Made by a program: the position numbers and the translations under genes. DNA of 64,000 bases from Eubacteriales bacterium. Lineage in GTDB: Bacteria > Bacillota > Clostridia > Oscillospirales > UBA644. The notes under the pieces were generated by a model, which was not told the DNA's origin, did not search any database, and saw only the letters and a list, made by a program, of their open reading frames with translations. The stretch spans positions 338,790 through 402,789 of the forward strand of contig JAZQKK010000014.1 in NCBI GenBank assembly GCA_045542115.1. Reading direction: 5' to 3'. Below are positions 5,159-25,120 of the stretch, one piece after another; the stretch's first letter is position 1; every line of letters begins with the position of its first letter.

Positions 5159-5333
5159 CGGACAACCTTCTTTCTTCGATATTCTTCACAGCCTGTCCGT
5201 ACTGACAGCCGCTGCGAGCCATTTCGTCCAACGTTTCCGCCCAGGCAAGCCCTCGGGCGGAGCGGCGGGGATCTCCCCGAGATAACTTCTTCCCGCAATT
5301 CACAACCTCGGCAGGCGGTTTAAGTTTTGGCAT
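5148..5333 (-). CDS. Small hypothetical phage protein
   Basis: Start moved to ATG 5333 (MPKLKPPAEV...), preceded by GGAGGG. The longer track ORF would overlap the upstream gene extensively. Confidence 0.45.
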   Translation of the reverse strand: MPKLKPPAEVVNCGKKLSRGDPRRSARGLAWAETLDEMARSGCQYGQAVKNIEERRLSGEN

Positions 5334-5730
5334 AGTAACCCTCCGCTCCTCTTTCGGGCAACCAAATATCAAACGACCTCTTAAATTCACTTGGACTTAG
5401 GGAAACTTCAGGAATAAAGCTTAGAGAAACAAGATGCATCTTAATCCCATATTCCTCCGCAACCAGCCTTTCAACCTTACATCCAGAATAATTCTCATCG
5501 TCTTCTATGCCGACAAAATAGTCCGCATCTGCCATTTTTGAAATAGCTCTACCCAGAAAAAAAATGCTCGGATTTTTCCCCGTTTCACAGTCCGCATCAA
5601 GAAAACTATCAATCACTTCAAGATCTTCCCCGAATGAGAGCTCCGCAATCTTGTGCATTATTTCTCGTGTTTTAAGAATATTTTTTCGAGTTCTACCTCT
5701 CATCGGACAGCTGATAAAAAGTTTTTTCAT
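5320..5730 (-). CDS. DUF4406 / nucleoside 2-deoxyribosyltransferase-like protein
   Basis: MKKLFISCPMRGRT N-terminus and ADADYFVGIEDDENYSGCKVERLVAEEYG match my recollection of the DUF4406 pattern (ISGPMtG ... cDav..l.gWe.S.Ga..E). Confidence 0.5.
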   Translation of the reverse strand: MKKLFISCPMRGRTRKNILKTREIMHKIAELSFGEDLEVIDSFLDADCETGKNPSIFFLGRAISKMADADYFVGIEDDENYSGCKVERLVAEEYGIKMHLVSLSFIPEVSLSPSEFKRSFDIWLPERGAEGYYAKT

Positions 5731-5788: not shown

Positions 5789-6292
5789 TTACCCCCCCTC
5801 GGAACGGTCGATCAGGAATTTTGCAAACTCTTTCAAGATTTCCTCCGTGAAGAGATTTCGGTTTTCATTCAACCCTTCTTGAAATGCCTCGTCGGCGTTT
5901 TGTGAAAGGATTTTGTTTTCACTCTGTAATCGTTTAATCTCTGCCTCGGCTTTTTTGAGGTGCATTTTCAGCGAATTCCCCGCCGACCGAAGCGAATCGT
6001 TTTCGACCTTCAAATCCTCAATCTCTGCCTTTTGGCGGTTGAATTGCTCCAACCTATCCAACCAACCCATTTGCCAAGCCCGAAACAGAATGCTATCTAT
6101 CACATTCATGCGGTCTAAATACGGTGGATAATCCTTTATAGGGTTCAATTCTCGATGGGTTCTTTCGTCCTCTTCCAAAAGATGAACGATCTGCAATGCG
6201 ATTCGCTTGGAATTGAGAATCAGTTTTAATTCCCCATTTTCAAAAACTCCATAATCGCATACAACATCACGCACCTCATATTTATCCATCAC
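5789..6292 (-). CDS. Hypothetical phage coiled-coil protein
   Basis: 167 aa. The central AEIEDLKVENDSLRSAGNSLKMHLKKAEAEIKRLQSENK region looks like coiled coil. Confidence 0.6.
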   Translation of the reverse strand: MMDKYEVRDVVCDYGVFENGELKLILNSKRIALQIVHLLEEDERTHRELNPIKDYPPYLDRMNVIDSILFRAWQMGWLDRLEQFNRQKAEIEDLKVENDSLRSAGNSLKMHLKKAEAEIKRLQSENKILSQNADEAFQEGLNENRNLFTEEILKEFAKFLIDRSEGG

Positions 6293-6447
6293 TCCGCACC
6301 GCCTTTCTCTTCACGATGTCCAATGCCAATTCCCATTGTCATGTCGTCTGATTCTTCAACCGCATCTTCTTTATGTCCGATGCCAATACCCAATGAATCC
6401 TCATAATCAACAGTATCATTATCGTCAAAATGGATTCCAATAGACAT
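6289..6447 (-). CDS. 52-aa acidic protein with duplicated GIGIGH motif
   Basis: Own translation: MSIGIHFDDNDTVDYEDSLGIGIGHKEDAVEESDDMTMGIGIGHREEKGGAE. RBS GAGGTGAGTGAGGT precedes it. The stop overlaps the next gene's start (GTGATG). Confidence 0.5.
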   Translation of the reverse strand: MSIGIHFDDNDTVDYEDSLGIGIGHKEDAVEESDDMTMGIGIGHREEKGGAE

Positions 6448-6459
6448 ACCTCACTCACC

Positions 6460-6717
6460 TCATTTCTCGATTTGGTGGTCTTCTTCTCCGAAAAGCAATT
6501 TACACATCAATTTCAACTCAAACTCTGGTAGCATGCCATGTTTGACAAGCGAAAACAATTCAATGATTTTTGCATATACATTGTTGAAATCTTTGTCCTT
6601 TTCAACATCATCAAACCTTGACACCTTATAAAGAGAATTGCTTAAACATCTCAATTCGTCATAATCAAGAGTAACCGTTGCAGATTTGCTATTCGTATTT
6701 ATTTCTCGTATAATCAT
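6460..6717 (-). CDS. Hypothetical phage protein
   Basis: Start moved to ATG 6717 (MIIREINTNSK...), giving an ATGA overlap with the upstream stop. Confidence 0.55.
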   Translation of the reverse strand: MIIREINTNSKSATVTLDYDELRCLSNSLYKVSRFDDVEKDKDFNNVYAKIIELFSLVKHGMLPEFELKLMCKLLFGEEDHQIEK

Positions 6718-7034
6718 TTCTCCGCACCGCCTTTCTCGGTTTCGGGCGGTTCGGTCACACCTCGCATATCTGCTCCGCAATAAGGACAAGTTTCTTCACA
6801 AGATTCTTTATCAACAGAGGGAAATGCGTGCCAACAGTTGGAGCATTTATAAAACTTCTTACCATTACGCACACAGGCAAATCTCCACTCTCCACGCTCC
6901 CGAATCGTCACTCCGTTTGCGATAAGGCTTTCTGAAAAATTCTCCCAATAATCTTCGTTATCAAGAGTCATTGCGTGTCTCTCTGCTTTTCTCAACAACT
7001 CAATCAGCCGTTGTTTCAGTTCTTCTCTCTTCAC
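6714..7034 (-). CDS. Hypothetical zinc-ribbon-like phage protein
   Basis: 106 aa with CSNC...CPYC cysteine pairs. GTG start preceded by AAGGAGG. Confidence 0.6.
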   Translation of the reverse strand: MKREELKQRLIELLRKAERHAMTLDNEDYWENFSESLIANGVTIRERGEWRFACVRNGKKFYKCSNCWHAFPSVDKESCEETCPYCGADMRGVTEPPETEKGGAEK

Positions 7035-7120
7035 GATACTGCCTCCTTACAATGCTCCGGGAGATTTGCCCGGACTAGTTCCGCCGGTACGGGTGGCGTA
7101 TCTACGAACAATTCTTTCAT
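7031..7120 (-). CDS. Possible 29-aa micro-ORF, translationally coupled on both sides
   Basis: Own translation: MKELFVDTPPVPAELVRANLPEHCKEAVS. ATGA overlap with the MTase stop and GTGA overlap with the next start. Confidence 0.3.
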   Translation of the reverse strand: MKELFVDTPPVPAELVRANLPEHCKEAVS

Positions 7121-7887
7121 TCGCACACCGCCTTTAAGCACGGCATTTCGCTTGTTGCCAGATTGTAGAAGTTCCGATCTACTTCGAAACCATATGCCCG
7201 TCTACCCAGCTCAGATGCTGCCTGCAGAGTAGAGCCACTCCCGGCCACCGGATCAATAACGACGTCTCCTTCGTCGGTGAAGATCTCAATCAGGCGTTTC
7301 AATACGGATACCGGTTTTTGCGTGGGATGGATTTTGGGATAGTCTTTCTTACTGTCCCGTTTCCACTCAAACCAGTTGAAGATCATATGTTTTTGTCCGT
7401 TCTCGTCGGTGTTGTTAAATTTGGGCAATTTGTCCCGATACAGAACCACGGCAAATTCCGTAGCCCCGACGATTTTCATATTGGCCTTTAAGACCTGGGC
7501 GGAATAGTTCTTAACAAAGAACAACGGATAGGAATTGACAAATCCATACCGTTTCCCGTATTCGATTACGGTTGGAATCTGCTCGAAGGCGCAGAAGACG
7601 ATCATCGCCGGAGCCTTCCCCCGTTCTTTGGGTTCTTTGATAAGTAAGCGGTTGCAGAAGTGCATATACTCCGCAATTTTGAATTGCCCGTCTGTATTAA
7701 AGAACGAGGTCTTCGCCAGTTTACTCTCCCCGTTTTTGTTGTCCCCGTCCTTGTACCACATTGGATTCGACGCATAGGCATCCACACCGATGTTGTAAGG
7801 AATGTCGGCGATTACCAATTGGGCGCGGGGAATATTATATCGCTTGAAGTTTTGGAAATTGTCGTGATAGAGTTCGACAGACTTCAT
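7117..7887 (-). CDS. Orphan DNA methyltransferase (beta-class N6-adenine/N4-cytosine)
   Basis: DIPYN (motif IV, DPPY-type) lies N-terminal and VIDPVAGSGST (motif I) C-terminal. No adjacent endonuclease. Start set to ATG 7887 (ATGA overlap). Confidence 0.85.
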   Translation of the reverse strand: MKSVELYHDNFQNFKRYNIPRAQLVIADIPYNIGVDAYASNPMWYKDGDNKNGESKLAKTSFFNTDGQFKIAEYMHFCNRLLIKEPKERGKAPAMIVFCAFEQIPTVIEYGKRYGFVNSYPLFFVKNYSAQVLKANMKIVGATEFAVVLYRDKLPKFNNTDENGQKHMIFNWFEWKRDSKKDYPKIHPTQKPVSVLKRLIEIFTDEGDVVIDPVAGSGSTLQAASELGRRAYGFEVDRNFYNLATSEMPCLKAVCE

Positions 7888-8075
7888 TTTCTTTTCCCTC
7901 CCGTTTTCTGCTTGATTTCGCCGCATCGAATCACGGCATTTGTCAAGTCCCTATCAACGACTGCACCGCAAACGTCAAAAAACGGACACCCGCCGCATTT
8001 GTCATCCCAAAACAGATTGTAGCACGAAATCGCAGCCTCGGCGTATTCATTCATATCATCGTATACGATATACAT
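7884..8075 (-). CDS. Small Cys-rich hypothetical phage protein
   Basis: MYIVYDDMNEYAE...CGGCPFFDVCG. GGAGGT RBS upstream of ATG 8075. Confidence 0.5.
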   Translation of the reverse strand: MYIVYDDMNEYAEAAISCYNLFWDDKCGGCPFFDVCGAVVDRDLTNAVIRCGEIKQKTGGKRK

Positions 8076-8076
8076 C

Positions 8077-8307
8077 TCAATTACCTCCAACGCTCTCAAC
8101 GATCAGCCGGCTACGGCAGGCAAGAACACATTCAAATGCCTTGATGGCTTTCCCATCTTTGGTAATCAGAAGTTCACGACGGAAGCCGGCGCAGGTCTTT
8201 CTGCTGCCGATGGTTTCATTGCGCAGGGCTCCGCAGTTGTCACAGGTGTATCCGTCCGGGACTTCACGGGCCGGATCGGTGTAAGTACGTATTTTCATAT
8301 TCGTCAT
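8077..8307 (-). CDS. Small Cys-containing hypothetical phage protein
   Basis: Internal start (MTNMKIRTYTDP...CDNCG...) chosen because the longer ORF overlaps the Rep 3' end. Alternative ATG at 8298. Confidence 0.4.
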   Translation of the reverse strand: MTNMKIRTYTDPAREVPDGYTCDNCGALRNETIGSRKTCAGFRRELLITKDGKAIKAFECVLACRSRLIVESVGGN

Positions 8308-9202
8308 ATCCTCTCGGTTTAAATGAGTCTCCTTCAAAGGGGATGATCTCGGCGGCGTCGGTCTTGTACATAACCACCGACATATACCAAAACCCATTAT
8401 ACTCATCGTATCGTGGGTAGGTGCGCAGAAGCCGGTACCCGGGCGCTTTTGTCTGCCAATATCGGGCATCGTCCATCAGCTTGGTAGCCATCTTCTCTAC
8501 AGTGGCGGCGGAGATTCTTCCGTCCTTTTGAGAGACGTCTGGTTTTTTCATATTTTTGGAGCAGCTGAATTTCTTTTTTCCCCGGGGGCACTTAGACATA
8601 TATCGGGCGGCGGCTTCCGGACCAAACCGTTCCGGCTGGAAATAATCACAGCTTACTTGAACGCCTTTCTTCCAGATTCGCTCCATCGTCCGCGGATCCA
8701 AGCCCCCGGTAATGAACAAATGGGAGTGCCAGTTCGCCCGTCCCCGATACGGGCCCCGCTGGTACGTAATCCGCTCCAGGGTATACGCCGTCTTTATTGG
8801 TTGGCGCAGCCGGCGCCGCTTTGCCATCAGCTCCCGGCGAAGCTCTTTCAGAGAGCTGTCGGGCGGCAATGCCCTTAACTGCTTTTCCACCTTCTTCAGC
8901 TCGGACGCACGTTTGGTTCGAATCCGACGGAAGTAGTTTCCAATGTCTTTCCGAGCCTCTTCCTCTGACTGAGGAGCAGCCTCGGCGGCGTAGGTGATGC
9001 CCATAAAGTAATCCTGCGTGTCAAAATTGGCGTTGATTAACCGCACGAACCGCTTAACCGATTCTCGTTCATTGTACAGCGCCTTTTTTTCGGGGGGCGG
9101 TTTCTTTCTGGGTACCGCACGACCCGACGGGGAGAACACAGGGTAATAATCTATTTCGAGAAGCGGCCCGGACTTGGTACGCTTCTCCCGTATGGTCTGC
9201 AT
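8264..9202 (-). CDS. HUH rolling-circle replication initiator (Rep)
   Basis: 312 aa. Motif 1 FMGITY, HUH motif WHSHLFITG, Tyr motif AARYMSK, in the canonical order. Confidence 0.75.
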   Translation of the reverse strand: MQTIREKRTKSGPLLEIDYYPVFSPSGRAVPRKKPPPEKKALYNERESVKRFVRLINANFDTQDYFMGITYAAEAAPQSEEEARKDIGNYFRRIRTKRASELKKVEKQLRALPPDSSLKELRRELMAKRRRLRQPIKTAYTLERITYQRGPYRGRANWHSHLFITGGLDPRTMERIWKKGVQVSCDYFQPERFGPEAAARYMSKCPRGKKKFSCSKNMKKPDVSQKDGRISAATVEKMATKLMDDARYWQTKAPGYRLLRTYPRYDEYNGFWYMSVVMYKTDAAEIIPFEGDSFKPRGYDEYENTYLHRSGP

Positions 9203-10678: not shown

Positions 10679-11011
10679 TCAACACACTCCTTTCCTACTT
10701 AAATATCCTGCGTAACGCGTATGACAAACCCGATTCCAAAATCCCGGCTTGCACCCGACCTTCCAATACCGATTCCGTCTTGCTCCTTCTTCGGCATACA
10801 TCAGATCTAACTGATCCTCGGACAAACCGTCGTAGATCGTAACGCCCAACCGTTCTTCCAACTCTTTGTTTCGGTTCATTTCCAATCGATCCCGATACGT
10901 AACGACCCGCCCCAACTCCGCTTTCAATTTCCGATTCACAACTCTACTCATATCCAAAGTTCCTTTCTTGACTTTTTTCGATTTATATGTTATACTACGT
11001 TTAGGAAACAT
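10679..11011 (-). CDS. First gene of the leftward early operon, hypothetical
   Basis: ATG 11011 (MFPKRSITYK...) or ATG 10951 (MSRVVNRK...). The upstream part of the 197-aa track ORF crosses the promoter/operator region and is rejected. Confidence 0.45.
   Translation of the reverse strand: MFPKRSITYKSKKVKKGTLDMSRVVNRKLKAELGRVVTYRDRLEMNRNKELEERLGVTIYDGLSEDQLDLMYAEEGARRNRYWKVGCKPGFWNRVCHTRYAGYLSRKGVC
10968..10996 (+). promoter_or_regulatory. Rightward promoter toward the repressor gene
   Basis: TTGACT (10968-10973), 17 nt, TATACT (10991-10996). A weaker TTTACA-17-TAGTGA lies at 11088-11116. Confidence 0.5.
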
Positions 11012-11033
11012 CGTGTTTCCTGTTTGTGGTATC

Positions 11034-11062
11034 ATTATATCACAGAATTTCGGTGATGTCAA
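11034..11062 (-). promoter_or_regulatory. Leftward (lytic/early) consensus promoter whose spacer is operator O1
   Basis: Minus strand TTGACA-17 nt-TATAAT. The 17-nt spacer (11040-11056) is exactly the palindromic site TCACCGAAATTCTGTGA. Confidence 0.65.
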
Positions 11063-11099
11063 TACTATTTCTGTTATTTTCTGTGATTTTACAAAATGT

Positions 11100-11116
11100 T
11101 CACAGAATTTTAGTGA
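11100..11116. promoter_or_regulatory. Operator O2 (second copy of the 17-bp TCAC-N9-GTGA site)
   Basis: TCACAGAATTTTAGTGA versus O1 TCACAGAATTTCGGTGA (15/17 identical), just upstream of the repressor RBS. A half-site TTCTGTGA lies at about 11079-11086. Confidence 0.6.
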
Positions 11117-11130
11117 AAGGATGATCTGCG

Positions 11131-11831
11131 AAATGTTCAATCGAATTAAACACTTGTGCGATACAAAAAAAATTTCCCCTTCAAAATTAGCCATTACACT
11201 CGGATATAGCAAGAACATATTTACCGAATTAAAATCCGGACGCACAAAATCTTTACCCCTTGAAAAAGTCACGAAAATTGCGAATTACTTCGAAGTATCT
11301 CCCCAATACATTCTGTTTGGGGCATCTCCCGATATAATCAAACTCGGCGACGACGCGGCAGAAGTTGTAGGTAAAGAAAAAAGCGTCCGCCAACCCCAAG
11401 GGTCAGCGGACACAAACACCGTTACCGTAATAGATTATTCTGTTATAGGAAAAGTTCGTGCCGGATACGGCGGAATGGCACAGGAAGAATACACCGACGA
11501 GACCTGCCCTATCCCTTCCGAATATATTAAAGGACACGAAAAAGATGAATTCTTCGTTCTGCGGATCTCCGGGAACTCCATGTACCCGAAACTTTTAGAC
11601 GGAGACAAGGTTCTCGTTCAACGTTGCACTTCCGTAGATTCGGGCGCCGTCGCCATCGTTTTGTATGATTCCGAAGAGGCAACCGTCAAAACCGTTCGCT
11701 ATGCCCCGAACCAAGATTGGGTCGAACTAATCCCCACGAACCCCGAATACCAAACCAAACGCATCGAAGGTCCCGACCTTCTCAAAGTGCAAATCCTCGG
11801 CAAAGTCACAAAACTTATTCGAGACATCTAA
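11131..11831 (+). CDS. LexA/CI-like phage repressor (XRE HTH + S24 peptidase)
   Basis: HTH ISPSKLAITLGYSKNIFTELKSGR. C-terminal ISGNSMYPKLLDGDKVLV plus a downstream Lys, typical of S24 self-cleaving repressors. Alternative ATG at 11143. The N-terminal 88 aa of the track ORF is rejected. Confidence 0.85.
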
Positions 11832-11853: not shown

Positions 11854-13509
11854 ATGGGGGCTTTAATTTTAGTTATATTTATTGCTATCGTTATAATCAT
11901 CTATCTTATAAAAAAAATTAATGAATTATCTTCCGACAATACAAATCTAAGATCCACAAACTTTGAAATTACAAAAAACCTTCGTGAACAAAAAGAACAG
12001 TTTGAAGAGAAAGAAAAACTGTACAAAAATCAAATTTCAAAAAAAGAGATCGAACAAAAAAAATTGCTAAAAACTCTTCTTGTCGCAAAAAAGAAGTGTG
12101 ACATTGAAATAGATGATCAAATTGAATCCCTTATAAAAGAAGACTACTCAATACTCGGAACTTCTACATTTTCAGTCGAAGAACACATAGCCACCCTCAT
12201 GGCTGATTATTATACTGCAGAAATTGAATCAGCGGAACAAACCCTTCGAGAGAACAAAAAAATACACAGGTCTCTCCTTGTTGGAGAGATCCGAAAAGAT
12301 GCTGAGGACAAAATTAAAAAAAGCCATTTTCGATACTACACAACTCATCTTCTGTTGTCAACAATATTACTTGACCACCCGGAAATTGATATTCTAAAAT
12401 ATCAAAACGTAGGGTTCGGTATCGATAATTTAGGTTTTAATATTTGGGAACAAGAACCTCATATCGAGTTTCAGGTTCTACTTGAAAATTACACAAACCA
12501 TATAGACAAATGCATTGGAGCACTGAAGGACTCCGTTGATGAATATAAATCTCAATATAGTTCAAATCTTACCGCTATTCCTTGGATGGCAAGATTTGTG
12601 GCTGATATTTCAACCATAGACCTGGAAAGAATTGCTCTTTCTCTTTCTTGGGGAGAAAACCAAGAGAGAAAAAAGAAAGTTGCCAGTATTAATGAGTTGA
12701 AAAAAGAGACAAGAGATCGTATCGAAAATATGAAGTGGGCAGAATACCAACTCGCATATCTGCTTGAGCTATATCCAGCATTACAAGACGTGATAGAAAC
12801 AGAATTCAACGAACTTTCAGTTTCTTTCAATGAAATAACAGATTATGACCCTGTAAGGAAGTACTTATCACACGAAGAATGGATCAATTTATCAGAGTCA
12901 GAACGAAATCAAATGGCACTGGACCGCTATGTTGAATCTCGAAAAAAATCAAAATGGCAAATTGGTCGAGATTACGAATTGTATTGTGGGTACTGTTATG
13001 AGCAACAGGGGTATGAGGTTCAATATTACGGAACCCTCAAAGGTATTGACGACCTCGGAAGAGATTTAATTGTAACCGATGGAGAAAAGACCATTATAGC
13101 ACAATGCAAATATTGGTCTCAACACAAGGAAATTCACGAAAACCACATTATGCAACTCTACGGATCCATTGTTGAATACAATATCGAAAACAGCGCTAAG
13201 CCAAAAGCAAAGGGAGTTTTAATTACAAACATTTCACTTTCTGAAAGAGCTAAACAATTTGCGGAAGCATTAAATATAACGTATGCCGAAAATATCCCCA
13301 TGAAAAACTTCCCTCGAATCAAATGCAACATCGGAAAAGATGAAAACGGAAAACCCACCCGCATATACCACCTGCCAATGGATTTGAATTATGATCAGAC
13401 TGTTATCTGCAATCCGGGAGAAATGTTAGCAATGACAGTAAAAGAGGCGGAAGATGCAGGTTTTCGCCGAGCGTATAGGTGGCATGGGGGAGAGTCCATC
13501 TCAACCTAA
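11854..13509 (+). CDS. Membrane-anchored coiled-coil protein with C-terminal Mrr-like (PD-(D/E)xK) restriction-endonuclease domain
   Basis: 551 aa. N-terminal TM GALILVIFIAIVIIIYLI and a K/E-rich coiled coil. WQIGRDYELYCGYCYEQQGYEVQYYGTLKGIDDLGRDLIVTDGEKTIIAQCKYW matches the Mrr_cat pattern (G..FE...GY.V...DgGiD....vQcK). Begins 22 nt after the repressor stop. Strongly AT-rich. Confidence 0.65.
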   Translation: MGALILVIFIAIVIIIYLIKKINELSSDNTNLRSTNFEITKNLREQKEQFEEKEKLYKNQISKKEIEQKKLLKTLLVAKKKCDIEIDDQIESLIKEDYSILGTSTFSVEEHIATLMADYYTAEIESAEQTLRENKKIHRSLLVGEIRKDAEDKIKKSHFRYYTTHLLLSTILLDHPEIDILKYQNVGFGIDNLGFNIWEQEPHIEFQVLLENYTNHIDKCIGALKDSVDEYKSQYSSNLTAIPWMARFVADISTIDLERIALSLSWGENQERKKKVASINELKKETRDRIENMKWAEYQLAYLLELYPALQDVIETEFNELSVSFNEITDYDPVRKYLSHEEWINLSESERNQMALDRYVESRKKSKWQIGRDYELYCGYCYEQQGYEVQYYGTLKGIDDLGRDLIVTDGEKTIIAQCKYWSQHKEIHENHIMQLYGSIVEYNIENSAKPKAKGVLITNISLSERAKQFAEALNITYAENIPMKNFPRIKCNIGKDENGKPTRIYHLPMDLNYDQTVICNPGEMLAMTVKEAEDAGFRRAYRWHGGESIST

Positions 13510-13517
13510 CACGTTAG

Positions 13518-13550
13518 CGGCAAGTTACCGGCAAGTTACCGGCAAGTTAA
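13518..13550. repeat. Three tandem 11-bp direct repeats (CGGCAAGTTAC) just upstream of int
   Basis: cggcaagttac cggcaagttac cggcaagttaa, read directly; ends 17 nt before the int ATG. Confidence 0.9.
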
Positions 13551-13567
13551 ATTGAAAGGAGCCGACT

Positions 13568-14602
13568 ATGGCATACAAAATTGAAACACTTCCCTCCGGC
13601 TCCAAGCGGATTCGGATCAGTTACAAGGATGAACTCGGGAACTACAGACAGAAATCCGTTACCGGAAAGACCGAAAAGGAGGCCCTGCAGAAAGCCCTCC
13701 AGTTTGAAGAAGAGGTAAAACACACCGAATCGCCGGACGGAATCTCCGTGATCGACGCCGTGAAGGAATATATCAACCTGAACCGCCACGCCCTCTCCCC
13801 CACCACGATCAGCCAATACGAGAGTATGGTAAAGAACCGTTTTGAAAATCTGAAAAACGTCTCCGTGGATCGGATCACAGATCGCATCGTGCAGAACTGG
13901 ATCAACGATATGATCCTGCGGGGGCTCTCCCCGAAATCCATCAAGAACACCTACGCCCTCCTTCTCCCTGCAATCCAAAGATACACGTCATTCGTCCCCC
14001 GGATCTCTCTCCCTCAAACCCGAGAATTCATTCACCAATACCCCCAAGACTATGAGGTGGAAAAAATCATTACCGCCGCACGGGGAACCCCATTGGAGCT
14101 CCCGATCCTTTTGGCCGCCTTCGGAGGAATGAGAATGTCCGAAGTCCTCGGCCTGAAATGGAGCGACGTCAAAGACGATCATATTATCGTTCAACGGGCG
14201 AGGGTCTACGTAGACGGATTTGAGGTGGAGAAGATTACCAAGTCAAAATCCGGCACCCGATATCTTCCCCTTTTCGCCCCGATCAAAGATGCGCTGGACA
14301 GAACCGACCGAACCGGAGACTATATTGTCAACCGAACCGCCCGCAGCATTAAGAAACGGTACGAAACCCTCCTTAAGAATCTCGACCTTCCGCCCTACCG
14401 CTTCCACGATCTCCGGCACCACGCCGCATCGGTCGGAGCAAAGCTCGGAATCCCCGACGATTACATGAAACAATATATCGGCCACTCCACCGTCAATATG
14501 CTGAAACGATACCAGCATCAAATGGAATCCGCAACATCCCAATACGCCCAGACACTCAACACCTATTTTACCACGGCAAGCACCGGCACCGACGATGAAT
14601 AA
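13568..14602 (+). CDS. int: Tyrosine-type integrase
   Basis: 344 aa. RMSEVLGLKWSD (Arg I), FHDLRHHAAS (H-x-x-R), IGHSTVNMLKRYQH (His...Tyr). Confidence 0.9.
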   Translation: MAYKIETLPSGSKRIRISYKDELGNYRQKSVTGKTEKEALQKALQFEEEVKHTESPDGISVIDAVKEYINLNRHALSPTTISQYESMVKNRFENLKNVSVDRITDRIVQNWINDMILRGLSPKSIKNTYALLLPAIQRYTSFVPRISLPQTREFIHQYPQDYEVEKIITAARGTPLELPILLAAFGGMRMSEVLGLKWSDVKDDHIIVQRARVYVDGFEVEKITKSKSGTRYLPLFAPIKDALDRTDRTGDYIVNRTARSIKKRYETLLKNLDLPPYRFHDLRHHAASVGAKLGIPDDYMKQYIGHSTVNMLKRYQHQMESATSQYAQTLNTYFTTASTGTDDE

Positions 14603-14765: not shown

Positions 14766-14798
14766 AAAATCCCGGAATCGTTGAGATTCCGGGATTTT
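14766..14798. terminator. Hairpin terminator downstream of tRNA-Ala
   Basis: AAAATCCCGGAATC-gttga-GATTCCGGGATTTT. Confidence 0.65.
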
Positions 14799-14804
14799 GT
14801 CTTT

Positions 14805-14880
14805 TGGTGGAGCGTAGGGGATTCGACCCCCTGACCCCAACACTGCCAGTGTTGTGCGCTACCAACTGCGCTAACGCCCC
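14805..14880 (-). tRNA. tRNA-Ala (anticodon GGC), CCA encoded
   Basis: Reverse complement GGGGCGTTAGCGCAGTTGGTAGCGCACAACACTGGCAGTGTTGGGGTCAGGGGGTCGAATCCCCTACGCTCCACCA folds as a cloverleaf. Anticodon loop is CTGGCAG. G3:U70 pair present. Confidence 0.9.
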
Positions 14881-18428: not shown

Positions 18429-19490
18429 TTATTTATTTTCATCAGGATTCAAAGAATCGTAGTAATCACTGAATTCTTCGTCCCGGTCAAAATGCAACGG
18501 AGGAATCTGGTCTTCCTCGGGGGTGGGTTGCAGTAACGGATCGGCAGGGTCCGCATCGGTGGAGAAGGTAAAGACCAGCAAATTAAACGCCAGAAGTGCC
18601 GCCAACAAATAGATACCGAAGGAAGTAAAAATCTCTTTTAATGCAATCTTATTGGGGGTAATTTGTTTATCCGGTTCTCTGCGGGGAAAGAAGAGAAAAT
18701 AAGCGGCAGCAACCCCAAACACCAAACCGATAAGAATCAGAAAATTGACGTAAATAGTGTATTCTTTCCAAGAAGCAATCAGCCACCACACCGAAAGAGA
18801 CAACTGGCTTGCGGCATTCAGAGCCATACAGCACCAGAAATTCCGTACCCGCAGATAAAACCAACCTAAAAGGAATCCGGTAACAAGGCGGATAACGATA
18901 TGATAGGGATGTCCGTCGCTGAACGCGAAAGCAACCGTAGAGACCAAGACCGCGGCAAGGGTATTTTCCTCTTTCATCCCGTTCAATGCAATGCCCCGGA
19001 AGGCAAATTCATAGGAAAAAGAAGAAAGAAAGGTGGACAGAAGAAGGTAGTATCCCATCTGTAACGGGTTGTTTCCCAAATTCGGGACCGTGATGGCGGA
19101 ATGAACCCCCATCCCTTCCAACAGGGACAAGCCGCCGTCGGTCAGTCCGGCAAGACCGATGGTCAGCCCCGAAACCGCCAAAACGCCGAGAAGGGTCCGC
19201 AGAAGAGGATGTTCCGAACGGGGCGTTTCCCGAAACAGGGGTAATACCGGGTCTCTGCGCAGTTTCTGAAATACAAAAAAGGGCAAGATAACTGCCACGG
19301 CGTTGGACACCAGCGTCAGGGCCGTGGAGAGATAGTAATTCAAATAGGGAACGGCAAGGCCGGAAAGTCCGCCCAGAACAAACTGCAACACCCAAACAAA
19401 GACCGTAACCACGAAAATACCACAGTATAAGTCCCGCAAGCGGGTACGATGCGCCTGTTCTTCCAGGGTCAATTCTACACGTTTTTTCAT
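18429..19490 (-). CDS. CPBP-family intramembrane protease (CAAX/Abi-type)
   Basis: Polytopic membrane protein with SYEFAFRG and FAFSDGH motifs resembling the CPBP EExxxR/FxxxH motifs. Confidence 0.6.
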   Translation of the reverse strand: MKKRVELTLEEQAHRTRLRDLYCGIFVVTVFVWVLQFVLGGLSGLAVPYLNYYLSTALTLVSNAVAVILPFFVFQKLRRDPVLPLFRETPRSEHPLLRTLLGVLAVSGLTIGLAGLTDGGLSLLEGMGVHSAITVPNLGNNPLQMGYYLLLSTFLSSFSYEFAFRGIALNGMKEENTLAAVLVSTVAFAFSDGHPYHIVIRLVTGFLLGWFYLRVRNFWCCMALNAASQLSLSVWWLIASWKEYTIYVNFLILIGLVFGVAAAYFLFFPRREPDKQITPNKIALKEIFTSFGIYLLAALLAFNLLVFTFSTDADPADPLLQPTPEEDQIPPLHFDRDEEFSDYYDSLNPDENK

Positions 19491-19714
19491 ATTCTAAAAG
19501 ACCTTTCCCTCATTCTTATTTCAGTATATCACATTTTGCGTTCAATTGCAAGAGGAAATGAAAATTTTATACAATTTAATTTTACGGTTATCCACAAATT
19601 TTTCCACAGTTTTTCGAACGATTGTTCAAAAGTCACACCACCAAAGAATGGAAAAATATGGTACAATAGAACCACGGTGAGAGACGGGCGGATACAGGAG
19701 CAGAAATCAAAACG

Positions 19715-20101
19715 TTGCTCCTTCCCAATCCACCCCAATCCATCGAACACAAGAAAGGAGGGACGGTTCTGAACGAATACGGAACACTGCAACAGCAAAT
19801 CGTTCGGTTGGCATTGGAATATATCAAAGAAATCCTAAGCGACAACACGGCGGACTACGGCGACTACCGGGTAGAAGACGGGGAGTTTCGCTTTTGTCCC
19901 CGGGAAGGAATTCATATTCCCGCCGACCGGGTCAGCGAATGGAACATTTCCAAAAGCGGCGGCGGAAAGATACGCTTTTTCGATAAAGCGGCGGCCATCG
20001 CTCTGGCAAAATCCATCGGTGTTTTTAACCTTACCCAAAGTGAAGAAACGGAAGACCTGAGTGACGATGCCCTGTTCGGTGATTCTGACGCCGAAATATG
20101 A
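19715..20101 (+). CDS. Small-terminase-like protein retaining only the C-terminal (oligomerisation/TerL-binding) part
   Basis: GGGKIRFFDKAAAIALAKSIGVFNL matches the conserved ...KLHDKLKALELLGKHLGMF... tail of Terminase_2-type TerS. No N-terminal HTH. ATGA overlap with TerL. Start uncertain (TTG 19715; AGGAGG at 19756). Confidence 0.55.
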   Translation: MLLPNPPQSIEHKKGGTVLNEYGTLQQQIVRLALEYIKEILSDNTADYGDYRVEDGEFRFCPREGIHIPADRVSEWNISKSGGGKIRFFDKAAAIALAKSIGVFNLTQSEETEDLSDDALFGDSDAEI

Positions 20102-21423
20102 TTAAGAAAAAGACCATTCCTTGGAATTTTTCCGAAAAGCAGAAGACCTATTTAAACCGCTGTCGCACCGCCACGTATAATTTCGCGGAAGGAGCGGTTC
20201 GGTCGGGGAAAACCGTCTGCAACGTTCTGGCCTTTGCCCGAGCCTTGGAGACCACCCCGGACCGGCTTCATTTGGCTACGGGAGTAACCATCGCCGCGGC
20301 AAAACTGAACTTAGGAGACTGTAACGGCTTTGGGCTGGAACATCTGTTTCGGGGACGTTGCCGCTGGGGCAGGTATCACGAAAATCCTGCCCTTTACGTG
20401 GAGACCAAGACCGGTCCGAAAACGGTGCTTTTTGCCGGAGGCGGAAAATCCGACAGTTATAAACGAATTCGGGGAAATTCCTACGGATTATGGATTGCCA
20501 CCGAGGTAAACAAGCATCATCTGGCCGACGACGACACCTGCTTTTTGCAAGAAGCCTTCAATCGTCAGTTGGCGGCAAAACGGCGGCAGGTTTTTTGGGA
20601 TTTCAACCCCGACTACCCAAAACATCCCGTCTACGTGAAATACGTGGATAAATTTCGAAACGACGGACTGGACGTAAATTATATGCATTTCACCATTTTT
20701 GACAACCCCGCCGTTGGAAAATCGCAGTTGGAAAGCATTTTGCGGCAGTATCAAAAGGGGAGCGTGTGGTATCGGCGTTGGATTTTGGGGGAACGGTGTG
20801 CGGCGGAAGGGTTAATATTTCCGGAATTCACGGAGAATTCCAAACGCTGGACCGTACAAACCCCGCCCGAAGACATTGCGTTTATCACCGTAGGCTGTGA
20901 CTACGGGGGGACGATGTCCCGAACGGTCTTTACTGCGGTAGGCATCCGGGAAGAATACCGCGGCGTCTGCGTGCTTGCCTGTCGGCGATTGGAAAAGGGA
21001 AAAGGGAAAATCACCCCCGACGACCTGGAACGGGAGTTTATTCAATTTATTTTTGACGTGGAACGGCGGTTTCATAACCGTCCCCGGTATGCTTTTATGG
21101 ATTCGGAGGGGCAATACCTGACCAACGGGATTCGGGCCGCTTGTGCCAGGGCGGGACTTTCGGTTGCCATATGCGACTGCAAAAAAGTTACCATCGCCGA
21201 CCGTATCGCTTGCAAGATGCGGTTGATGAACGAAGGGAGATGGAGCGTTCTGGAAGACTGCACCGAAGTCATCTCTTCCACGGGAGAATTGGTCTGGGAC
21301 CCCGATGCCCCCGACCGGCGATTGGACAACGGAACCACCGACGTGGATACCGCCGACGCGGAAGAATACGCCTGGTCCTGTTGGCTCAAAGAATTTTTAA
21401 ACCCTCCGAAAGAAAAGAGGTAA
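20098..21423 (+). CDS. terL: Terminase large subunit (PBSX/Terminase_3 type)
   Basis: 441 aa. Walker A AEGAVRSGKT, Walker B-like LWIATEV. Size and layout typical of the type. Confidence 0.85.
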   Translation: MIKKKTIPWNFSEKQKTYLNRCRTATYNFAEGAVRSGKTVCNVLAFARALETTPDRLHLATGVTIAAAKLNLGDCNGFGLEHLFRGRCRWGRYHENPALYVETKTGPKTVLFAGGGKSDSYKRIRGNSYGLWIATEVNKHHLADDDTCFLQEAFNRQLAAKRRQVFWDFNPDYPKHPVYVKYVDKFRNDGLDVNYMHFTIFDNPAVGKSQLESILRQYQKGSVWYRRWILGERCAAEGLIFPEFTENSKRWTVQTPPEDIAFITVGCDYGGTMSRTVFTAVGIREEYRGVCVLACRRLEKGKGKITPDDLEREFIQFIFDVERRFHNRPRYAFMDSEGQYLTNGIRAACARAGLSVAICDCKKVTIADRIACKMRLMNEGRWSVLEDCTEVISSTGELVWDPDAPDRRLDNGTTDVDTADAEEYAWSCWLKEFLNPPKEKR

Positions 21424-21426
21424 TCA

Positions 21427-22833
21427 ATGGAAACCATACTTTCCTATCTGAAAGAACGGTTCGGATATGACAATATCGACCGGGGTTTTTACCGGAAGAT
21501 AAGCGAATGGGACCGCTGGTACACGGGGAACGGCACCGATTTTCACCGTACCCGGGTCAACAACGGACTTTCGGTCATTGAACACGATTTGAGTCAGATG
21601 AATATGGCCAAAAAGGTAGCCGAAGATTGGGCAAACCTTTTGATGAACGAAAAGACCCGTATTGACACCGACAACGCCGCAGCCGCAGAATTTTTGCGGG
21701 GACACAATGGCAAAGGCGGGGTTTTGGGAGAGAACGATTTCTGGACCGGAATCAATCAACTGGTAGAACGGTCCTTTGCCTTGGGAACGGGGGCCGTGGT
21801 GCTTCGATTGGAACAAGCCCGTATCGACGGACAACACCGGCTTCTCCCCTCTCCTGAGGGAAAGATTCGGTTGGAATACGTCACCGCACCCAACATTATT
21901 CCCCTGTCCTGGCAGGGAAACGACGTGACCGAAGCGGCCTTTGCAGGTTCAATGACCCAGGCAGGTCAGAGCTTGACCTATTTGCAGATTCACCGAAAAG
22001 AAGCCGACGGCTACGTTATCGAAAGCGTCTGCTTTTCCAACAAGACCGGGAAAAAAGTTCCCTTACCCGACGGCATCTGCCCTACGGTACGAACGGGAAG
22101 CAATACCCCTTGGTTCGTACTGATAAAACCCAATTTGGTAAACAATCTCACCGACCTTCCGATGGGGATTTCGGTCTTCGCCAACTCCATCGACATCCTG
22201 AAAGGGTTGGATCTGTGTTACGACAGTTTCCATATGGAATTTTATCTGGGCAAAAAGATGGTCTTTCTCCGAAAAGACCTGATGATGCAAGACCAACAGG
22301 GACGGTTGTATGCCCCCCAGGATTGCAATCGCCAACTGTTTATGTACATCGGAGACAAGAACGTGGACGGAGACCTGCTTCCCCAGGAATTCAACCCGGA
22401 ATTGCGAGTCAAGGACCACGCCGACGCCATTCAGCAGCATTTGAATTATCTGTCCTGTAAATGCGGATTCGGAGACCGGTATTATCGGTTTAACGGAAAC
22501 GCCGCACCGGCAACTGCAACGGAAGTTATCTCCACCGACGCCGCCCTGTACCGTTCGGTGCGCAAGCACGAAATTCTCTTGGAGCAACCCCTTCTTCGTC
22601 TGACCGAAGCGATTCTTTCCGTCGGACGGGAGATTTTAGGTCGCCCCATTCCCGAAGAAGTTGCTCTTTCGGTCCACTTCGACGACAGTATCATCGAAGA
22701 CCGGACGGCAGAGCAAAAGCGAGATATGGAGCTGGTTTCTTTGGGATTGATGCTAGATTGGGAATTCCGGATGAAGCATTACGGAGAAACCGAGCAGACT
22801 GCCAAAGCACGGTGTAAGGAGAAACGGCAATGA
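21427..22833 (+). CDS. Portal protein (SPP1 Gp6-like)
   Basis: 468 aa immediately after TerL. The N-terminal ISEWDRWYTGNGTDFH...MNMAKKVAEDWANLLMNEK pattern is typical of Gp6-type portals. Confidence 0.8.
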   Translation: METILSYLKERFGYDNIDRGFYRKISEWDRWYTGNGTDFHRTRVNNGLSVIEHDLSQMNMAKKVAEDWANLLMNEKTRIDTDNAAAAEFLRGHNGKGGVLGENDFWTGINQLVERSFALGTGAVVLRLEQARIDGQHRLLPSPEGKIRLEYVTAPNIIPLSWQGNDVTEAAFAGSMTQAGQSLTYLQIHRKEADGYVIESVCFSNKTGKKVPLPDGICPTVRTGSNTPWFVLIKPNLVNNLTDLPMGISVFANSIDILKGLDLCYDSFHMEFYLGKKMVFLRKDLMMQDQQGRLYAPQDCNRQLFMYIGDKNVDGDLLPQEFNPELRVKDHADAIQQHLNYLSCKCGFGDRYYRFNGNAAPATATEVISTDAALYRSVRKHEILLEQPLLRLTEAILSVGREILGRPIPEEVALSVHFDDSIIEDRTAEQKRDMELVSLGLMLDWEFRMKHYGETEQTAKARCKEKRQ

Positions 22834-23231
22834 GCGAAGAAAACAAGCAAACGCCCCTGTCGGTGGAAGAATTGTCCGCCCTGATTCCCGAAGGGTACGC
22901 CCTGGTGGAAAAGGACGGCTGGATTCCTCGTCAGCAGGCGGAAGAACAACTGCGCAATCTGTCCTTTGACCGACAGATCGACTTAGAATTGACCCGATGC
23001 GGAGCAAAAAGCTTGACGGCCGCCCGGGCGCTTCTGGACCTGAATCACTTACGGGAAAATCCCGACGGAGTTTCCGCTGCCGTGGGCAAGGTCCGAAAAG
23101 AAAACGACTGGCTCTTTCAACAACAGTCCACCTATTCCAGCGGCGGTGTTTTGGCCCCCCGGCGGTCGGTGGACACCGAAACGATGACCGATGCGGAATA
23201 TTACGCCTATCGGAAACAAATGAAAGGATAA
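22830..23231 (+). CDS. Scaffolding protein (GP20-like)
   Basis: 133 aa between the portal and coat genes. GAKSLTAARALLDLNHL resembles the GP20 family motif. Confidence 0.6.
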   Translation: MSEENKQTPLSVEELSALIPEGYALVEKDGWIPRQQAEEQLRNLSFDRQIDLELTRCGAKSLTAARALLDLNHLRENPDGVSAAVGKVRKENDWLFQQQSTYSSGGVLAPRRSVDTETMTDAEYYAYRKQMKG

Positions 23232-23240
23232 AAAACGATT

Positions 23241-24323
23241 ATGAACAACTTTTTGACTACCAAAACTATTGCAAGAGAAGCCCTTCCCATTCTGGAATCC
23301 AATCTGGTCTTCCCTGCGCTTATCTACAAGGATTATTCCGAAGACTTCTCCAAGCAGGGCGACACCATTCAGGTTCGCAAGCCTCCCGTATACAACGCCT
23401 CCGAATTTGACGGAGAAATTGATATCCAGGATATCAACGAAGGGGAAGTTCTCGTCAAGCTGGACAAGATCGCCGACGTATCCGTGGAATTGACCGCCAA
23501 GGAAATGGCCTTGAACGCGGAAGATTTCACCAAGCAGGTGATTGAGCCTGCGATGGTTGCCATTGCAGAAAAAATCAATGCCGACGGCCTTGCCCTTTAC
23601 AAAGACGTTGCCAACATTTACACCCCCGAATCGGGCAAGCCTTCTTCCCTGTCCGATCTTGCAGGCGGTGCCAAGATTTTGAACGACAACAAGGCTCCCC
23701 TCGTGGGCAGAAGCGGCGTTTGGAACACCGAAGCGATTGCAAACTTCCAGGTTCTTCCCGCTCTGGTCAATGCGGAAAAATCCGGTTCCACCGATGCTCT
23801 GAGAGAAGGGTCTGTCGGTCGGGTCTTCGGCGTAGACCACTTCTTCTCTCAGCAGGTTCCCGAACATACGGCGGGGAATTTCTCCGGAAAGGCAACCGTT
23901 GATACCGTAAACGCCTACGGCTACGTTTCCATCTCCGGTGGAAACGGCTCTTTGTACTGCGGAGACATTCTGCAAATCGGAGAGAAGACCTACACCGTAA
24001 CGGAAGACGTGAACAGCGACGGAAATACCGTCACGGTTCCGGTTTCTCCTCAGGCCAAACAGGAGGACGTCGTCGGGAAGGACGTTACGGTCCTTGGAAA
24101 CCATACCGCCAATCTGATGTTCCAGAAGAACGCCTTTGGCTTTGTGACCCGTCCCTTGGAAGCGGCCCGCGGTGCAGACAGCTACGTGACCAATTACAAC
24201 GGTCTTTCCGTCCGTGTCACGATGGACTACAACATCGCCACCAAGAAACAGACTCTTTCCATTGATACGCTGTACGGCTTTAAGACCCTGTACCCCGAAC
24301 TTGCCGTCCGCGTTGTTGGCTAA
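23241..24323 (+). CDS. Major capsid protein (P22-coat-like family)
   Basis: 360 aa. N-terminal TKTIAREALPILESNLVFPALIYKDYS...GDTIQVRKP is characteristic. No protease gene in the cluster. Confidence 0.8.
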   Translation: MNNFLTTKTIAREALPILESNLVFPALIYKDYSEDFSKQGDTIQVRKPPVYNASEFDGEIDIQDINEGEVLVKLDKIADVSVELTAKEMALNAEDFTKQVIEPAMVAIAEKINADGLALYKDVANIYTPESGKPSSLSDLAGGAKILNDNKAPLVGRSGVWNTEAIANFQVLPALVNAEKSGSTDALREGSVGRVFGVDHFFSQQVPEHTAGNFSGKATVDTVNAYGYVSISGGNGSLYCGDILQIGEKTYTVTEDVNSDGNTVTVPVSPQAKQEDVVGKDVTVLGNHTANLMFQKNAFGFVTRPLEAARGADSYVTNYNGLSVRVTMDYNIATKKQTLSIDTLYGFKTLYPELAVRVVG

Positions 24324-24342
24324 GAAAACCGTTTTATATTCT

Positions 24343-24366
24343 GCGTCTCTCCTTCGGGAGAGACGC
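24343..24366 (+). other. Perfect 10-bp stem / TTCG-loop hairpin just after the capsid gene
   Basis: GCGTCTCTCC-ttcg-GGAGAGACGC with no U-tract. Likely an mRNA-stabilising or partial terminator element. Confidence 0.6.
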
Positions 24367-24385
24367 CCAGACAGGAGGCAAACCT

Positions 24386-24742
24386 ATGCAAGCCATTACC
24401 AAAACGGAATTTGACCTGACCCACCGGTCGGAGAATCTGGAAGAAGAGGAATTTGACCTGCTTTCTCAGTTAGCGTTGGACCTGACCAATCTGTTGTGTT
24501 TTGGCCGAGCCGACCGAGACGAAGGCTCCGCCCGGCGCGCAATGAAAGAAATGATCGGCTATTGGGTCGCCCGGGGAGGGATGTCCGCCGTCAGCGGACA
24601 GGCAACCCCCAAAAGCGAGAGAATCGGGAATTATTCAGTAACCAATCGGGAGGAAAATGCCGTTACACTCAACGGCGTCTCCATCGCCCCCCAAGCGCTG
24701 TTGATTCTGGACAATGCAAATCTCCGCAACCGAAACCTGTAA
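24386..24742 (+). CDS. Head-tail connector (gp6-like) candidate
   Basis: 118 aa; call from position after the capsid gene and size. Confidence 0.45.
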   Translation: MQAITKTEFDLTHRSENLEEEEFDLLSQLALDLTNLLCFGRADRDEGSARRAMKEMIGYWVARGGMSAVSGQATPKSERIGNYSVTNREENAVTLNGVSIAPQALLILDNANLRNRNL

Positions 24743-24754
24743 AGGAGGAATGGG

Positions 24755-25120
24755 ATGACCGTAACTATTTTTAACCGTTTGGGAGAGGACGAGCAGGGCA
24801 ACGGAAGATACAAACCCTGCGTCTTCCGAAACGCCTATATCGAGACCAAAAATGCGGCAAATCCCGTCTATTCGGGGGAACGGAACAACGATAACTTCCG
24901 CTTGTATCTGTTCACCGACCGGGGATATCTGCCCGGGGAGGAATTTCGAAACGCGCCGGGAAGCCATTGGACCTTGGAGCCGGGAGACCTTTTGGCGTTG
25001 GGGATTCACAAAGAAATTCCCCAAAACCCGTTTCGAATCAATACAATAAACGTATTTTATGCCCGAGACAAATTTCATCACTGGGAGGTGAGCGGCCGTG
25101 GGCAGTTGCTGGAATCGTAA
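24755..25120 (+). CDS. Head-closure / minor capsid-type protein candidate
   Basis: 121 aa; call from position in the head-tail joining block. Confidence 0.4.
   Translation: MTVTIFNRLGEDEQGNGRYKPCVFRNAYIETKNAANPVYSGERNNDNFRLYLFTDRGYLPGEEFRNAPGSHWTLEPGDLLALGIHKEIPQNPFRINTINVFYARDKFHHWEVSGRGQLLES

Follow-up and report, generated by a model that had tools for sequence, protein, structure and literature searches.

We describe here a predicted membrane-tethered nuclease gene that is carried by a prophage in a 64,000-nucleotide (nt) stretch of DNA (the window) from a Eubacteriales bacterium (GenBank assembly GCA_045542115.1, contig JAZQKK010000014.1, positions 338,790 to 402,789). The gene is an open reading frame (ORF) of 551 amino acids (aa) that stands between the repressor and the integrase of the prophage; its predicted parts, some of them drawn from an AlphaFold2 (AF2) model, and its two neighbours are as follows.

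11133..11831, + strand: CI/LexA-like repressor with a Cro/C1 helix-turn-helix (HTH) and an S24 autopeptidase (Pfam Peptidase_S24 8e-23, HTH_26 2e-7; phrog_4 2e-32)
11854..13509, + strand: gene under study, 551-aa ORF with an ATG start, predicted membrane-tethered Mrr-type nuclease
11857..11916, + strand: N-terminal transmembrane (TM) helix, residues ~2-21, predicted N-out/C-in, mean Kyte-Doolittle hydropathy 3.36
11920..12561, + strand: variable K/E-rich helical stalk, residues 23-236, long helices in the AF2 model, 21% pairwise identity
12163-12393, + strand: degenerate first copy of the helical module, residues ~104-180 (hhalign against the conserved module, probability 97.5%, E=7.5e-12)
12562..12951, + strand: conserved helical module and pre-nuclease helices, residues 237-366, 55-63% pairwise identity
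12952..13287, + strand: Mrr_cat PD-(D/E)xK nuclease, residues 367-478 (Pfam match at residues 371-474)
13303..13494, + strand: C-terminal 'sunset' domain, residues 484-547, IKCNIG...IYHLP.D..YD...EAE.AGFRR (NCBIfam NF051437)
13568..14602, + strand: tyrosine integrase (Pfam Phage_integrase 2e-15; phrog_1 4e-49)

The repressor ORF ends at 11831, the gene follows after a 22-nt gap on the same strand, and a gap of 58 nt separates it from the integrase start at 13568; this is the position that an initial annotation, made from the DNA alone, had given it behind a LexA/CI-like repressor and before int. The skewed composition noted at that time was likewise exact to the base (14/60 G+C at nt 12001-12060, 28/60 at 13601-13660). 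The ORF has a G+C (GC) content of 0.36 in surroundings of about 50% (repressor 0.45, integrase 0.52, 64-kb window 0.495), and at third codon positions (GC3) it has 0.33 vs 0.65 in the integrase. This is no chance reading frame, because more than 1,200 homologues were found at 90% clustering, with E down to 1e-172.

The protein is a member of the Mrr_cat superfamily, as model score, catalytic residues and fold all indicate. Mrr_cat (PF04471) reaches 42.2 bits where 21 are required (E=1e-10), the GRDYE...DLGRDLI...QCKYW motifs are present, and E375 (12976), D400 (13051), D404 (13063) and Q417-C418-K419 (13102-13110) are invariant in 37 homologues; we take the catalytic residues among them from the Mrr/MspJI D...QxK motif, not from a residue-level superposition. 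The AF2 model has a mean predicted local distance difference test score (pLDDT) of 77.7, with values of 82-97 across most of the nuclease domain, and Foldseek matched this domain to MspJI, AF1548 (1y88) and EndoMS/NucS (E 6e-5 to 9e-4, probability 1.0) and also to AspBHI, with weaker matches to the effector nucleases Cdn1, Can2 and Card1. Judged from its residues, the nuclease looks catalytically intact.

The nuclease does not stand alone. Behind it, the sunset domain of the query scores 20.4 bits, under the 27-bit cut-off of NF051437 (E=4e-4), and the same model matched 37/37 aligned family members at E<=0.01 (best E=4.3e-7), with H506, D510 and G536-F-R-R539 invariant in the 37 homologues. 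An AF2 model of sunset alone gave no PDB Foldseek match below E=1, and a suspected likeness to the Ada zinc-binding domain was dropped (hhalign over 13 columns, 7.6%; PDB profile search empty). Ahead of the nuclease, Pfam gave nothing for residues 237-370 with the threshold relaxed to E<=10. A search with just the helical module, run against 1.84 billion representatives, returned at least 836 clusters at 50% identity, and of its best 141 representatives 117 also carry nuclease and sunset; every one of the other 24 is short, and in most a break is visible inside the module or just past it, so that in effect the module belongs to this nuclease family only. The conserved unit is helical module, Mrr_cat and sunset together. 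In the query the degenerate stalk copy at residues ~104-180 pairs with the conserved module at 237-312 in profile-profile hhalign, an internal duplication that pairwise BLASTP left undetected and for which profile-profile comparison was required; two or three module copies are present in 48 of the best 141 representatives.

Ahead of this unit conservation falls away, the pairwise identity being 21% for TM helix and stalk, 55% for the helical module, 64% for Mrr_cat and 69% for sunset, and the length ahead of the conserved core varies from 81 to 319 aa across the family. What is kept there is the anchor: 104 of the 119 complete homologues have a TM helix near the N-terminus, and lysines plus arginines average 3.9 in its C-flank vs 0.3 in its N-flank (C-flank count larger in 101/104). 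The query follows this pattern, with no basic residues ahead of the helix and KK behind, and by the positive-inside rule on these flanks the nuclease is predicted to be cytoplasmic. The initial annotation had read a TM anchor, a coiled coil, an Mrr_cat core and a C-terminal tail domain, and domain scans and AF2 bear out each; its unknown domain of about 270 residues is indeed helical, and it is not one domain but the stalk (23-236) plus the module region (237-366). A PDB sequence search with the single protein found no match, and one with the family profile returned coiled-coil noise only. In some members (P0100 and P0106 among those aligned) a SWIM zinc finger (PF04434), RNase_Y_N or FtsL_2-like regions replace part of the stalk.

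Relatives occur in at least 536 of 185,579 species-representative genomes, with a core identity of 38-59%, in Clostridia, Gastranaerophilales/Melainabacteria, many lineages of the Candidate Phyla Radiation (CPR), Bacteroidota, Proteobacteria, Elusimicrobia, Omnitrophota, Spirochaetes and Verrucomicrobia. Most protein clusters of the family have 1-6 members, a plasmid search found only 4 Hymenobacter records, public annotation goes no further than 'restriction endonuclease', and full-text literature searches gave no description of the family. The family is large, unstudied and concentrated in gut prophages. Beyond it, gut 'Siphoviridae sp.' metagenomic phages in BFVD encode much shorter 'restriction endonucleases' of 210-400 aa (PHROGs 17577, 19856 and 33422) whose predicted structures align to the query across a long helix and the nuclease, which may point to a broader class of phage Mrr nucleases tethered by a helix.

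The genomic surroundings of the relatives were compared by calling ORFs in 165 fetched loci and clustering the neighbours within 4 genes all-against-all; hidden Markov models (HMMs) built from the neighbour clusters were then used to count integrases (within 2.5 kb downstream) and HTH genes (just upstream). Among the closest set, the ~46 genome loci nearest the query and mostly metagenome-assembled genomes (MAGs) of Clostridia, an integrase stood downstream in 22/39 and an HTH gene upstream in 23/38, as compared to 5/31 and 2/31 in other phyla. IMG/VR held 159 viral contigs with a relative, with an integrase downstream in 28/54 and an HTH gene upstream in 44/66. The orientation was that of the family gene for the HTH gene in 64/72 loci and for the integrase in 60/65. 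We estimate, as opposed to having measured it with an empirical control, that chance would give this slot in a 40-kb prophage to a few per cent of genes. The check proposed with the initial annotation thus finds the homologues strongly enriched between prophage repressors and integrases, both in the closest genome loci and in IMG/VR. The recurrent neighbours were HTH regulators (mostly at -1/-2), tyrosine integrases and large serine recombinases (mostly at +1/+2) and a few Fic genes. The regulators beside the family comprise S24 repressors (8), ImmA/M78-associated repressors (6) and plain HTH proteins, and because several repressor kinds and two unrelated integrase families are involved, the gene has been captured in this slot repeatedly.

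The slot itself exchanges its contents. One relative's locus (L003) has the layout of the window, namely Rep, small genes, a Cro-like gene, an S24 repressor, the family member and an integrase. A cultured bacterium, Ruminococcus intestinalis NSJ-71 (NZ_JACOPS010000006.1, L019), likewise carries a family member with the HTH gene before it and the integrase after it. A sister prophage (L166), with a 99% identical integrase, the identical chromosomal site and a similar Rep, has an unrelated 210-aa gene (6279-6911) in place of the nuclease, and in a further prophage (L168), whose integrase is 77% identical, the slot holds two small genes of 136 and 95 aa (6126-6820). None of these cargo genes has a Pfam or PADLOC match. 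No close integrase relatives were found in IMG/VR, and the sister prophages came from the protein database. Across the family the gene exceeds its 5-kb flanks in AT content in 140/143 loci, by a mean of 8.5 and a maximum of 28 GC points, which together with the different gene in the sister prophage upholds the earlier suggestion of separate acquisition. By slot position, variable cargo and atypical composition, the gene is accessory cargo (a 'moron') of the lysogeny module.

It is also an orphan nuclease, in that neither a methyltransferase nor any other partner recurs beside it. No methyltransferase recurred within 4 genes in about 78 loci, so that the cognate methylase that would define a type II restriction-modification system is lacking; the prophage's own methyltransferase lies 4 kb from the nuclease gene, in the lytic operon and on the opposite strand. 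Outside prophages, the loci hold SoFic (4), AbiH/PDC-S13 (3), PDC-S04 (3-4), OLD/GajA-like ATPases (2), DpdF, ResIII helicases and Bro-N, and they also hold housekeeping genes. SoFic (best E=1e-106) lies within three genes in L001, L006, L047 and L061, in Clostridia and CPR, and AbiH is directly downstream of the family member in three loci.

These features lead us to the following proposal. The gene is moron cargo, belonging to the lysogeny module of a temperate tailed phage that has integrated beside tRNA-Ala, and it is probably transcribed together with the repressor, so that the nuclease would be made in the lysogen; the consensus pattern scan found no convincing + strand terminator between repressor, nuclease ORF and integrase, the first lying at 14766, which makes co-transcription plausible as far as pattern matches go. 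The product would cross the inner membrane once, leaving a few residues outside and the remainder in the cytoplasm; its variable coiled-coil stalk carries the module, the Mrr-type DNase and sunset, and probably dimerises that unit. An intact-looking enzyme, encoded in a lysogeny module and lacking a cognate methylase, needs some way of sparing host and prophage DNA, and apart from the catalytic unit, the one feature conserved family-wide is a membrane anchor borne on a variable stalk. We propose that this tether holds the nuclease off the nucleoid and the resident prophage and places it where foreign DNA crosses the membrane, such that the DNA of a superinfecting phage, and perhaps other DNA, would be cut on entry. 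From architecture and context, then, we infer that the gene is expressed in the lysogen and that its product is a dimeric, active DNase which serves defence and acts at the injection site. That the gene serves defence or exclusion in some form is likely; to the fuller reading, of a lysogen-expressed, membrane-tethered nuclease that cuts entering DNA and so confers superinfection immunity, we give a probability of roughly 0.45, arguing largely by analogy. The injection-site mechanism as such we put forward tentatively, at less than even odds.

The analogy is with SNIPE (PD-lambda-1) of E. coli (Saxton et al., Nature 2026; PMC13190303), whose strategy the present protein would share while being built from unrelated domains. 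In SNIPE an N-out TM helix leads into a variable N-terminal region, after which come a middle domain that binds DNA and, at the C-terminus, the nuclease; the protein is constitutively located at the membrane, associates with ManYZ and the tape measure protein and cuts lambda DNA during injection, and without its TM helix it is toxic and nucleoid-bound (PMC13190303). An induced resident prophage is unaffected by SNIPE (PMC13190303), and for this reason the mechanism would suit a gene carried by a prophage. Both are encoded by a single, prophage-borne gene and have one N-out TM helix right at the N-terminus (predicted in the family), a poorly conserved N-terminal coiled coil of variable length, a conserved middle domain and a C-terminal cytoplasmic nuclease. 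SNIPE's homologues have N-terminal regions that match ATP synthase b, FtsB, DivIVA and PspB (PMC13190303, Supplementary Table 3) and the stalks of the family match ATP synthase b, DivIVA and FtsL; both sets are generic signatures of membrane-anchored coiled coils. The differences are that SNIPE has a GIY-YIG/T5orf172 nuclease in contrast to Mrr_cat PD-(D/E)xK, a DUF4041 middle domain in contrast to the family-specific helical module, and no counterpart to the extra C-terminal sunset, and that SNIPE belongs to E. coli whereas the family's hosts are mostly Gram-positive Clostridia along with many other phyla.

Homology between the two was looked for and rejected, with hhalign of the family profile against SNIPE giving a probability of 5% and Pfam nothing on the module; the protein is an analogue of SNIPE, not a homologue. 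The PADLOC PD-Lambda-1 models recognised SNIPE itself, our positive control, at 1.9e-198 and did not match the query, for which PADLOC returned only mREase_IV (E=0.013, catalytic core only). The initial annotation had not recognised this domain combination as a named defence system, and PADLOC finds none. The SNIPE gene, which we retrieved through the published primer (WP_000195116.1, 'DUF4041 domain-containing protein'), lies inside a lambdoid prophage of E. coli CFSAN061770 (NZ_CP023142.1; L169 4001-5503), flanked by ren/replication protein P and, beside the nin region, a gene with a P22AR C-terminal domain; of 5,426 complete E. coli genomes, 130 carry it, on the chromosome in every case.

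Position alone recalls another group of phage genes. Lambda rexAB and sieB, lactococcal Sie2009 and Ltp of S. thermophilus likewise stand beside repressor and integrase, are presumed to be expressed in the lysogen and have membrane-associated products, yet they have no sequence relationship to the family and none of them is known to be a nuclease; RexB is an ion channel partner, and Sie2009 and Ltp act by stopping DNA from entering. The rexAB comparison drawn in the initial annotation accordingly holds for the position of the gene and fails for its mechanism, RexAB not being a nuclease. Among published defence proteins, Mrr_cat is also linked to the membrane in Epona, a cassette of the Vibrio cholerae superintegron that joins Mrr_cat to a holin-like 2-TM domain and is experimentally anti-phage (bioRxiv 10.1101/2024.07.02.601686). 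Like the present family, Epona is a single gene in which an Mrr_cat nuclease is joined to a membrane-spanning part; unlike it, Epona has two holin-like TM helices and is not reported to have stalk, helical module or sunset, a separation that we draw from its description only.

Several observations weigh against an enzyme that cuts DNA at the site of injection. The mechanism is argued by analogy alone, because neither homology to SNIPE nor DUF4041 was found, and no partner is apparent, be it in the injection machinery or in the membrane. A membrane anchor is compatible with other mechanisms, Epona being one instance. The family was found in 0/50,697 sequenced phage genomes (INPHARED). The core is unusually conserved, with 40-57% identity across phyla, and the family also occurs in CPR genomes among housekeeping genes, and both could speak for a more general role in DNA handling. 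Finally, the promoter and terminator calls are consensus matches only.

Alternatively, the protein might be a type IV-like, modification-dependent restriction enzyme in which sunset or the helical module reads a modification that the host lacks and the anchor is secondary. This rival is unlikely and yet live, because the best fold matches include MspJI and AspBHI, which are modification-dependent; Mrr_cat is moreover the catalytic domain of Mrr, the sole PADLOC match is to mREase_IV, and the Mrr/MspJI enzymes share with the family the catalytic fold, the D...QxK motif and the lack of a cognate methyltransferase adjoining the gene. That PADLOC match is weak, however, and limited to the catalytic core, and Pfam, NCBIfam, PADLOC and Foldseek found no known reader of modified bases (SRA-like, YTH, Mrr_N winged helix), though sunset or the helical module may be a reader of a new kind. 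Moreover, the known enzymes are soluble, whereas the family keeps its TM anchor in 104/119 homologues and adds stalk, helical module and sunset. The type IV reading and the membrane-tethering model are not exclusive of each other.

Less likely again is an abortive-infection effector, auto-inhibited at the membrane, that upon an infection cue (for instance membrane perturbation or a phage protein) degrades DNA indiscriminately and brings about death or growth arrest. Epona (bioRxiv 10.1101/2024.07.02.601686) is an active anti-phage precedent, Mrr_cat is the effector in Avs, Lamassu and NLR-like systems, the fold also matches Cdn1, Can2 and Card1, and AbiH and SoFic genes lie near some copies. 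The protein has, on the other hand, no recognisable sensor or ligand-binding domain (CARF, SAVED, STAND), its single TM helix is neither pore nor holin, and such a nuclease, unless specific, would endanger the induction of the very prophage that carries it.

Least likely is a membrane-associated nuclease that serves phage or cell otherwise than in defence, such as in processing DNA that has been taken up for nucleotide salvage (attractive for CPR), in resolving or anchoring DNA at the membrane or in lytic degradation of host DNA: the conserved core fits this, as do the many CPR/Patescibacteria copies beside tRNA synthetases, FtsZ and DNA pol III alpha and the few integrases (5/31) and HTH genes (2/31) nearby outside the closest, mostly clostridial set, but the distribution is sporadic, most clusters are small, the gene is AT-richer than its flanks almost throughout, it lies in the lysogeny module on the strand of the repressor and not in the lytic operon, and the sister prophage lives without it. 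A multi-gene system with a conserved partner was ruled out by the clustering of neighbours within 4 genes.

SNIPE showed in 2026 that a nuclease can discriminate self from non-self simply through its placement at the point where phage DNA comes in. If the proposed tethered nuclease does cut DNA upon entry, evolution would have arrived no fewer than two times at such discrimination by nothing but location, and this would be a convergent, widespread and general strategy of bacteria, working also in Gram-positive and ultra-small ones, instead of a peculiarity of SNIPE in E. coli. What is known is the tethered-nuclease design, through SNIPE; what would be new is an Mrr-based build from unrelated parts. 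It is possible, and we advance it with more reserve than the reading as a whole, that the family is an independent, non-homologous counterpart of SNIPE, a tethered Mrr nuclease with its own adaptor module, spread by the lysogeny modules of prophages in gut Clostridia and present in CPR, Bacteroidota, Melainabacteria and Proteobacteria. This large uncharacterised family would then be a common superinfection-immunity gene of gut Clostridia prophages, on which there has so far been very little experimental phage biology. Two domains are new to study, the repeatable helical module of ~75 aa and sunset, neither of which has a solved structure or an assigned function. The slot between repressor and integrase is a hotspot of variable cargo that can be mined for further candidate defence genes, for instance those in L166 and L168.

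The remaining features of the host prophage are as follows.

8264-9202, - strand: rolling-circle-type Rep (phrog_3584 4e-51; weak REP_ORF2-G2P)
10968..10996, + strand: promoter-like site TTGACT-17-TATACT with TG, upstream of the repressor (consensus scan, pattern match only)
11034..11062, - strand: perfect-consensus promoter-like site TTGACA-17-TATAAT, leftward toward the early lytic genes (consensus scan)
11040-11056 and 11100-11116, no strand assigned: two TCAC-N9-GTGA operator-like sites (repeat search)
11068-11086, - strand: TCACAGAA half-site in the switch region (repeat search)
13518..13549, + strand: CGGCAAGTTA, three exact tandem copies 11 nt apart, between nuclease stop and integrase start
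14766..14798, no strand assigned: strong bidirectional terminator-like hairpin, the first convincing + strand terminator after the repressor (consensus match only)
14805..14880, - strand: tRNA-Ala(GGC), prophage end (ARAGORN, Rfam)

The element is a genuine tailed prophage. To the left of the switch lie Rep, a DNA methyltransferase and both terminase subunits, small and large, and the prophage continues past the left end of the window. An inovirus-like element, as the REP_ORF2-G2P-like Rep might suggest, is out because the large and small terminase subunits are those of a tailed phage; this rolling-circle-type Rep in a tailed prophage is conserved in the related prophages L003 (1665-2483) and L166 (2839-3777; 71% DNA identity). 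A tRNA-Ala and a tRNA-Ser adjoin the integrase, and tRNA-Ala(GGC) is probably the integration target.

Positions 10968-11116 read as a textbook-type genetic switch of divergent promoter-like and operator-like sites, the operator-like sites lying at and just to the right of the leftward promoter-like site and to the right of the rightward one. The rightward site at 10968..10996 is a candidate promoter for a transcript of repressor, nuclease and integrase. The repressor probably starts at an ATG at 11133 or 11121, with 11133 favoured, the mechanical ORF start at 10866 being over-extended. Between nuclease and integrase, the CGGCAAGTTA repeats have no further exact copies within the window, and DNA similarity to the sister prophage L166 restarts at 13554, 5 nt past them; the repeats might serve in regulation, might bind a recombinase, or might be a scar where two modules join.

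In the lytic operon, genes at 5320-5730 (-) and 7117-7926 (-) between them encode the DNA methyltransferase (phrog_67, 3e-51) and a protein with a weak likeness to nucleoside 2-deoxyribosyltransferase (phrog_355, 9e-6). With this pair the phage may carry modified DNA of its own, a point relevant to whether the nuclease senses modification.

Further along the window, 18471-24813 has 73-76% DNA identity to a part of L167 with genes for an Rce1-like protein and for SPP1-portal-, scaffold- and P22-coat-like proteins. There it is directly beside an integrase 82% identical to the window's, and in the window the tRNAs and three genes of host-like kind stand between it and the integrase; it may be another region of phage origin, the second here, or an end of the prophage that has been rearranged.

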